Positions 32,019 to 32,138 of a stretch of 64,000 nucleotides of DNA are shown here, in pieces; the stretch's first letter is position 1; each line of letters starts with the position of its first letter. The notes beneath the pieces are model-generated. The model was not told the origin of the DNA and made no database searches. It saw nothing but the letters and a program-made list of their open reading frames with translations. The stretch spans positions 2,056,205 through 2,120,204 of the forward strand of contig CAVUJA010000001.1 in assembly GCA_963741715.1 (NCBI GenBank), given 5' to 3'. The position numbers were made by a program, and so were the translations under genes. Source of the stretch: an uncultured Acidobacteriota bacterium (GTDB lineage: Bacteria; Acidobacteriota; Vicinamibacteria; Vicinamibacterales; Fen-181).

Positions 32019-32138
32019 GTGGCTGGTGGTCAGTGGCTCGTGGCTGGTCGTCACGCATGACAGCGTGTTCACCGGCCACCAGCCACCAGCCACCAGCCAC
32101 CAGCCACTAGCCACTAGCCACTAGCCACTAGCCACTAC
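32019..32138. repeat. opposed 7-bp arrays (GTGGCTG/GTGGTCA arm versus CCACCAG x4 plus CCACTAG x5 arm)
   Basis: The left arm (32019-32055) is the approximate reverse complement of the right arm (32071-32138). The locus is a convergent gap between galM and fkpA. Confidence 0.9.

Follow-up and report, generated by a model that had tools for sequence, protein, structure and literature searches.

A heptamer-repeat hairpin between converging galM and fkpA genes is one copy of a dispersed palindrome family in an uncultured acidobacterium

We analysed a 64,000-nucleotide (nt) stretch of DNA, hereafter the window, from an uncultured soil bacterium of the phylum Acidobacteriota, order Vicinamibacterales (Fen-181; assembly GCA_963741715.1, contig CAVUJA010000001.1, forward strand positions 2,056,205 to 2,120,204), with a focus on a hairpin in the 148-nt gap between the converging genes galM and fkpA. 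Read directly, the sequence of this gap contains two opposed runs of 7-base repeats. The resulting hairpin is a single copy from a family of dispersed palindromes made of heptamer repeats. In some Vicinamibacterales genomes, intergenic period-7 arrays have undergone a lineage-specific bloom, of which this family is a part. We interpret the element as a dispersed repeat palindrome, prone to slippage, with the role of a 3' stem-loop and not of a canonical terminator, and place the probability of this interpretation at about 0.45, a little short of even odds. An earlier note on the same DNA, made from the sequence alone, had described this one hairpin; an explanation tied to galM and fkpA is too narrow, since the hairpin belongs to a genome-wide set of heptamer arrays.

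The left arm (32017-32051, + strand) is composed of five degenerate heptamers, TAGTGGC, TGGTGGT, CAGTGGC, TCGTGGC and TGGTCGT, which Tandem Repeats Finder reported as a period of 7 with 3.9 copies and 77% matches. The right arm (32076-32138) was reported with 9.0 copies of the same period and 98% matches. Its inner block, (CCACCAG)x4 (32076-32103), has identical units, and its outer block (32104-32138) is made of (CCACTAG)x4 followed by CCACTAC and has TAG in all three frames of both strands. The fold places an apex at 32050-32067, where GTCACGC (32050-32056) overlaps a 5-bp mini-hairpin, CACGC-ATGACA-GCGTG (32052-32067). The arms are opposed in the convergent gap as the earlier note had described them, about 15-20 nt apart, and the right arm is ~1.9 times the length of the left. 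An inverted-repeat search found five alternative registers in which 32-nt arms are 84-88% complementary, and it also paired 38-nt arms at 79%.

Folding of the 148-nt gap as RNA gave -78.7 kcal/mol for the + strand (z = -6.00, 0/200 shuffles as good) and -87.1 kcal/mol for the - strand (z = -6.27, no shuffle as good). The long imperfect hairpin that had been proposed for either strand was therefore borne out by the comparison with shuffled controls, whilst the gap folded as DNA had z = -5.66. The stem comprises ~29 arm pairs plus 5 apex pairs; small internal loops interrupt them, and there is no single continuous 30-bp helix. In the + strand RNA fold, the outer block of the right arm is mostly unpaired.

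The element begins 20 nt from the stop codon (TAG, 31994-31996) of an aldose 1-epimerase gene (galM-like, Pfam Aldose_epim; 30822-31996, + strand) and ends 6 nt from the stop codon (32145-32147) of an FKBP-type peptidyl-prolyl isomerase gene (fkpA/fklB-like, 228 aa, FKBP_N and FKBP_C; 32145-32831, - strand). No U-tract or A-tract lies on either side of the hairpin, whose flanks read GGGCCGCA and CGAGAAAC, and a terminator scan returned nothing in the gap, in agreement with the earlier observation that a U-tract is absent. A scan of the window at Rfam gathering thresholds had tRNA as its sole match, with none at the hairpin; a permissive scan returned generic miRNA-precursor hairpins only, at 18-33 bits against thresholds of 53-197.

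The family to which the hairpin belongs has a consensus of ~85-90 nt, comprising 4-5 NAGTGGC units, an apex GTCACGC(G)TGAC and 4-5 GCCACTN units, with (G)TAGTGGC at its start and GCCACTA(C) at its finish. The elements at 32017, at 57340 and in the same gap of the relative L001 begin TAGTGGCT.GTG, carry a GTCACGC apex and end GCCACTAC. Most family members have GTAGTGGC at the left end and GCCACTAC at the right, with the window copy at 32016 reading ATAG. The paralogue at 57340-57498 (+ strand) is located between genes for an engB-like GTPase and an aldo/keto reductase (AKR), has a left arm of ~5 units, the apex GTCACGCG and a right arm of ~14.6 units, and folds with z = -6.31; the stop of the engB-like gene is the first TAG of this element. 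A half element at 42603-42676 (+ strand), GCGTGAC then (GCCACTA)x7, starts 22 nt past a stop codon and extends into the ATG of a small open reading frame (ORF). The expanded arm is the C-rich arm on the window + strand in both the 32017 and the 57340 copy. GC skew was flat in the window, so the asymmetry of the arms could not be related to replication direction.

Of the 22 GTCACGC sites in the window, 5 had an array no more than 30 nt away, where 0.8 would be expected, and each of the 5 had the orientation predicted from the family; besides the hairpin studied here, the motif adjoins arrays at 42604, 56677 and 57374. Scanning metagenomes with TAGTGGCTNGTGN{10,40}GTCACGC retrieved at least 120 stretches. 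Most of the matches listed were chance, as expected for 18 specified bases, and ~14 among them had a CCACTAG-type right arm that the pattern did not impose, a hairpin fold and a contig GC of 0.42-0.70. Many of these ~14 hairpins carry a fuller palindromic apex, GTCACGCGTGAC. The terminal TAG or CTA was the stop of a long flanking ORF with high GC content at third codon positions (GC3) in 6/16 family members, and several members were located in convergent gaps. When viral-labelled contigs were scanned for (GCCACTA)3 without imposing the apex, 10 contigs (GC 0.41-0.71) matched, 4/10 with opposed partners. GTCACGC occurred in none of the 10, and thus the unit is widespread and the apex marks a subfamily only. 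GTCACGC as a universal core was ruled out, as it is missing from the un-imposed opposed (GCCACTA)n pairs. In the family alignment the typical arm has 4-5 units and the two window copies have 9 and ~14.6 on the right, which identifies the long right arm at 32076-32138 as a local expansion. The one-sided expansion suspected earlier is thereby well supported: the right arm has 9 units, arranged in two internally identical blocks.

Two further observations concern this unit and its apex. In a lower-GC organism (metagenome contigs L143, L146, L151, L203, L091 and L140; GC ~0.48), a perfect hairpin of another sequence, GGTAGGGCGGTCACGCCGTGACCGCCC, is bordered by TAGTGGC arrays and recurs on several contigs. 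GTCACGC also stands just upstream of the engB start in the window (56677-56700) and in the lon-engB gaps of two relatives, L212 and L213; it is doubled in L212 and in the window, and is kept in all three genomes despite different unit families in the arrays to its left.

The galM/fkpA hairpin is one of many period-7 repeats in the window (GC 69%). There were ~20 period-7 arrays (822 nt) at ~15 loci, compared with 4 arrays of period 5, 1 of period 6 and none of period 8 or 9, and they fell into a handful of recurring unit families. GCCACTA/TAGTGGC occurs at 32017, 42623 and 57340; TGCATTG/TGCATTC/GCATTCG at 3085, 4026, 30655, 59072 and 59119; GGGAGTC/GGGATTC at 19981, 54112, 54204 and 56643; TCGACTC at 45453 and 48863; TGCGRCY at 40745, 50438 and 58482; and TCCCTCG at 12916. 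Clear opposed pairs were found at three places, 32017/32076, 54112/54204 and 57340/57396, and 58482-58580 may be a fourth. The second of these (54112-54236, + strand) sets GGGAGTC/GGGATTC against GACTCCC/GAATCCC between clpX and lon, with a fold z of -4.23. Some arrays adjoin other sequence features. A 15-nt tandem repeat, TGACCCTCCGTAAGC x3.3 (4076-4124), abuts the TGCATTC array at 4026-4077, and two TTGTGCA arrays (3060-3090, 59100-59125) have a similar non-repeat leader, GCGTCT(T)GCC...CGTT, which suggests that arrays are copied along with a flank.

The arrays were associated with the 3' ends of genes. On a GC3-based gene map checked with Pfam, they occurred in 13/24 gaps containing a gene 3' end and in 1/6 divergent gaps, a small sample (Fisher P ~0.2). 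Most arrays begin 0-6 nt past a stop codon (8/13; median distance ~5 nt), and in three long co-directional gaps they are on the stop-proximal side. At their C-termini, ClpX, Lon, the reductase, GalM and FkpA agree with their counterparts in relatives, so the arrays begin after native stops and the genes are not truncated. Upstream of rpmE, arrays sit between the preceding stop and a conserved promoter/5' untranslated region (UTR) block. Hairpin-plus-U terminators, by comparison, were not enriched (16 vs ~23 in shuffles, over 60 kb), and the window has a single convincing classical terminator, at 4530-4567.

Array positions at gene starts were also recorded. The block upstream of rpmE (~58587-58634; a promoter-like -10 and 5' UTR, TGTGCTACAAT...GAAGGAG...GTG) is kept in the relatives L210, L212 and L213, always with the arrays upstream of it, and its conservation indicates that rpmE starts at the GTG near 58632 and not at the longer ORF start. 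Some arrays end 0-2 nt before a start codon, namely at 19981-20013 (leuC-like gene), at 42623-42676 (the small ORF, which begins in GCCACTATG) and in L221, and this leaves no space for a Shine-Dalgarno sequence, a situation also reported for TAACTGA repeats.

We further compared the window with its relatives. The best named ClpX relatives were 87% identical and labelled Vicinamibacterales or Acidobacteria, whilst metagenomic relatives reached 95%. L001, whose FkpA is 75% identical, has a homologous element in the same gap, with the same start and GTCACGCG; the common ancestor of the two genomes already had a copy between its galM and fkpA genes. The right arm in L001 is short, is built of roughly hexameric GCCACT units and overlaps the fkpA stop, so that the comparison of arm lengths in relatives, which the earlier note had named as a check, accords with expansion on one side. 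Among the matches listed from a search of genome contigs with FkpA, relatives were at most 66% identical and none was syntenic at the gap.

The tig-clpP-clpX-lon-engB-rpmE cluster was compared in relatives with 93-95% ClpX identity. In the gap between clpX and lon, L213 has an opposed GGGATTC element as in the window, with a homologous centre and a right arm of 8 units (4.7 in the window); L212 has opposed GGGGATC arrays there, and L209, L210 and L211 have none. The gap after engB contains the TAGTGGC hairpin in the window, a GGCTCAG/CTGAGCC hairpin in L213, mixed arrays in L212 and only 17 nt in L209. Several more opposed pairs were present in L213. Taken together, the comparison of relatives indicates that the arrays are lineage-specific and dispensable, and that they persist in position while their unit and copy number change fast. 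Arrays of GGCTGAC, GTCAGCC and GTCCCTC, partly opposed, also occur inside an RNase_H_2-family (MrfB-like) ORF in L212 (16322-16419) and L213 (16758-16859), where their translation gives a variable linker; the window orthologue (59173-60720) is variable at the same site.

We propose that the galM/fkpA element would act as a 3' stem-loop. The fkpA-side arm has about twice the unit number normal for the family, and its extra units probably arose by replication slippage, since they form two blocks of identical units; the difference in copy number of the clpX-lon array between the window and L213 also supports slippage. As the element stands 6-20 nt beyond both stops, both convergent transcripts should contain it, each folding into a stem of ~30-34 bp. 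In Escherichia coli, repetitive extragenic palindromic (REP) elements provide an exonuclease barrier and partial insulation, and stem-loops define the ends of Rho-terminated transcripts. By analogy, the stem here would mainly block 3'-to-5' exonucleases and would partially insulate each gene against read-through from the other. The lack of a U-tract favours such a 3' stem-loop over an intrinsic terminator, and termination itself would be brought about by Rho or by polymerase collision. This role would be facultative and not essential. The stability of the predicted fold, the siting of arrays at gene 3' ends, the lack of enrichment of hairpin-plus-U terminators and the precedent of the Xanthomonas arrays speak for this reading.

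A bidirectional terminator, the function put forward in the earlier note, was not established: the tail of an intrinsic terminator is missing, the stem is far longer than terminator stems, and the canonical form is excluded. A factor-independent bidirectional terminator working without a U-tract appears improbable to us. The stable GC-rich stem in a convergent gap, the scarcity of canonical terminators in the window and the location of arrays ahead of a conserved promoter would fit it; however, it would have to work with neither a U-tract nor an A-tract on either side and with a stem of ~30 bp whose internal loops and alternative registers lie far outside terminator geometry, and it is missing from the same gap in L083. 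Hairpins without a tail also terminate poorly in vitro with the RNA polymerases of high-GC bacteria.

The main rival to the 3' stem-loop is that the hairpin is a neutral or selfish by-product, in which arrays spread by slippage, gene conversion or other dispersal, are tolerated past stops and form a hairpin without a role in RNA. We consider this possible, though on balance unlikely, and several results weigh against the stem-loop. The L083 genome (FkpA 77% identical, syntenic) has a 13-nt galM/fkpA gap and no hairpin, and the L001 copy is decayed, with a fold only marginally better than shuffles (z = -1.8); the element is therefore dispensable. Such variation in presence and such decay of copies among close relatives would be expected of a by-product, and array density, also among relatives with 93-95% ClpX identity, ranges from 0 (L209, L210, L002, L084 and L087) to 4.2 per 10 kb (L213). 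Many window arrays are single-orientation and unable to form hairpins, hence hairpin formation is not the reason for the arrays' existence. In the truA-like/amidohydrolase convergent gap, (TCCCTCG)x6 then (TTCCCTC)x5 (12916-13003) spans the entire distance from stop to stop, is C/T-rich and G-poor on the + strand and, having no inverted partner, offers no possible hairpin. Significant structure is missing from several array-free 3' gaps; in favour of the stem-loop, some others in this clade have ordinary GC hairpins that lack U-tracts (27964-28076 and, in L212 and L213, the rpmE gaps), so that a 3' hairpin is common yet not obligatory. Across 18 family members, neither G-U versus A-C mismatches nor strand fold energies revealed a consistent asymmetry, and this lack of a strand-specific G-U signature also suits a by-product. 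For the nearest known counterparts, the arrays of Xanthomonas, Rehm et al. did not find a regulatory role (PMC4692102). Unit types turn over at one and the same site, arrays occur even within a variable protein linker (L212, L213), and units with TAG in all frames end any ORF that they enter, which alone could explain arrays that overlap stops. Against a by-product, opposed arrays are kept at the same positions despite different units (after engB and between AKR and rpmE, in the window, L212 and L213), and arrays start after native stops without truncating the proteins. In addition, a hairpin of -79 to -87 kcal/mol in two 3' UTRs would hardly be inert for exonucleases, given mRNAs that are stabilised by REP elements.

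Mobility of the whole element was considered as an origin of its dispersal. A REPIN-like element or miniature inverted-repeat transposable element (MITE), whose single-stranded DNA hairpin would be moved by an enzyme encoded elsewhere in the genome, be it a REP-associated tyrosine transposase (RAYT; IS200/IS605-type) or a transposase of another type, and whose heptamer periodicity would be secondary, seems to us rather improbable. It would account for the sharply conserved ends (G)TAGTGGC ... GCCACTA(C), for the resemblance of GTAG to a REP 5' head, for the conserved palindromic apex GTCACGCGTGAC, for copies dispersed in one genome and over contigs of GC 0.42-0.70, and for the non-repeat leader common to the TTGTGCA arrays. 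No transposase or RAYT gene was present among the ORFs of the 64-kb window, however, and no target-site duplication was visible at 32017/32138 or 57340/57498; the arms are direct repeats and not individual REP palindromes, and the (GCCACTA)n arrays found without an imposed apex have no GTCACGC. Of MITE features, the element has inverted ends, which follow from its construction, and no visible direct duplication at its boundaries, and the L083 empty site is too diverged to align. More broadly, TAGTGGC palindromes and perhaps other heptamer families could be products of an active, sequence-specific, horizontally spreading system, either a hairpin mobilised by an unrecognised enzyme or an activity that writes or maintains 7-nt repeats past stops. 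Such a system would explain the unit in contigs of GC 0.41-0.71, the conserved ends and apex, and the period-7 excess in many bacterial genomes, but we regard it as a long shot. Least probable is a role at the DNA level, as a cruciform or periodic site for a nucleoid, topoisomerase or repair protein, such as has been reported for the E. coli REP/BIME elements. The DNA fold (z = -5.7), the 12-bp dyad at the apex of family members and the equal folding of the two strands across the family are in line with it, whereas there is no known candidate for such a protein, the same units also form single arrays that lack a dyad, and sequence does not separate a DNA from an RNA role. Four further candidates were rejected: a CRISPR array (no spacers), a G-quadruplex (no G3 tracts, with GG the longest G run in either arm), a stop-codon readthrough signal (the extension would be 7 codons only) and an assembly artefact (short-read assemblies made independently contain these elements too).

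The surroundings of the element in the window include further features. GalM is encoded in two frames, with positions 1-122 of the Aldose_epim profile on 30822-31358 and 121-298 on 31340-31993, which places a frameshift near 31340-31360. A leuC-like gene (20013-21409) and a cusA-like gene (45543-48977) are broken as well, and the three breaks are either long-read assembly errors or pseudogenes. Near fkpA lie two copper-type resistance-nodulation-division (RND) efflux clusters (32868-40700 and 45543-50017), with CusB-like proteins that have HMBD and YHS domains, ACR_tran and a multicopper-oxidase-like protein; the fkpA-cusAB neighbourhood is seen again in the relatives L002, L084, L087 and L210.

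An excess of intergenic heptamers in bacteria was noted in cyanobacteria in 1990 and genome-wide in 2007. The window presents the phenomenon in a third, uncultured phylum, where it is more tractable: unit families coexist, one of them is a bounded palindromic family with a conserved apex, and arrays stand at native stops. Close relatives range from 0 to more than 4 arrays per 10 kb, which invites phylogenetic profiling for the gene content that accompanies the bloom. For annotation, such hairpins are likely markers of 3' ends in high-GC genomes that lack classical terminators. The galM/fkpA locus itself is ordinary within its genome and of modest consequence, and the interest lies in the genome-wide phenomenon and in the contrasts between close relatives.

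Finally, we compared the element with known systems. Our literature search found no paper on CCACTAGCCACTAG or its relatives, nor on heptamer repeats in Acidobacteria, and the unit TAGTGGC/GCCACTA is not identical to the described GGGAATC, GGGGAYT, STRR1-3 or TAACTGA. Bidirectional intrinsic terminators have one hairpin common to two converging genes, with a short stem between an A-tract and a U-tract. The element here resembles them as a single hairpin between converging genes and differs in its stem, with ~29 + 5 pairs, internal loops and five registers in place of the expected ~5-15 bp and a 3-8 nt loop. REP, BIME and REPIN elements are extragenic, located after stops and between convergent genes, form long hairpins as inverted pairs and have a GTAG-like head; they protect mRNA 3' ends, terminate partially, and are dispensable and strain-variable. 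Each REP is a palindrome of 20-40 nt, whereas the arms here are direct heptamer arrays and the palindrome exists only at the level of the whole element. The cyanobacterial short tandemly repeated repetitive (STRR) sequences of Mazel et al. in 1990 reportedly comprise several heptanucleotide families per genome, tandem and intergenic; by this description they are alike in having several heptamer families in one genome and differ in unit sequences and phylum.

TAACTGA repeats of Beggiatoaceae, Cyanobacteria and Bacteroidetes are arrays of one heptamer in distant lineages, lie a few nt from start codons, contain stop codons in several frames and have a proposed translational role (MacGregor 2015, PMC4679880). 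The arrays here at 19981-20011 and 42623-42676 are likewise a few nt from start codons, with no room for a Shine-Dalgarno sequence. The unit differs, however, and the galM/fkpA arrays are inverted, whilst TAACTGA sets almost never are (1 indirect repeat among 170; PMC4679880). Heptamer repeats also occur near promoters and start codons in Nostoc (bioRxiv 10.1101/2022.06.06.494920). Xanthomonas (GGGAATC) and Nostoc (GGGGA(C/T)T) have many arrays per genome with a unit of exactly 7 nt, ~90% of them intergenic and nearer the upstream ORF end (Rehm et al. 2015, PMC4692102). In Xanthomonas the mean distance to the upstream ORF is 28 nt, few arrays stand between divergent genes and most are transcribed; 70-75 occur in inverted pairs at close spacing that could fold into stem-loops, and the same gaps are occupied in sister species by arrays of differing length, with no function found (PMC4692102). 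The element described here agrees with these arrays in every structural respect except unit sequence, and the window even has near-identical units, GGGATTC/GGGAGTC, at 19981, 54112, 54204 and 56643. It differs in its unit, TAGTGGC/GCCACTA, which lacks a G3 tract and thus cannot form a quadruplex, in the conserved GTCACGC apex and fixed ends of a sharply bounded palindromic subfamily, and in an acidobacterial host in whose genome several unrelated unit families coexist. The galM/fkpA hairpin therefore belongs to a known kind of repeat, the intergenic heptamer array.

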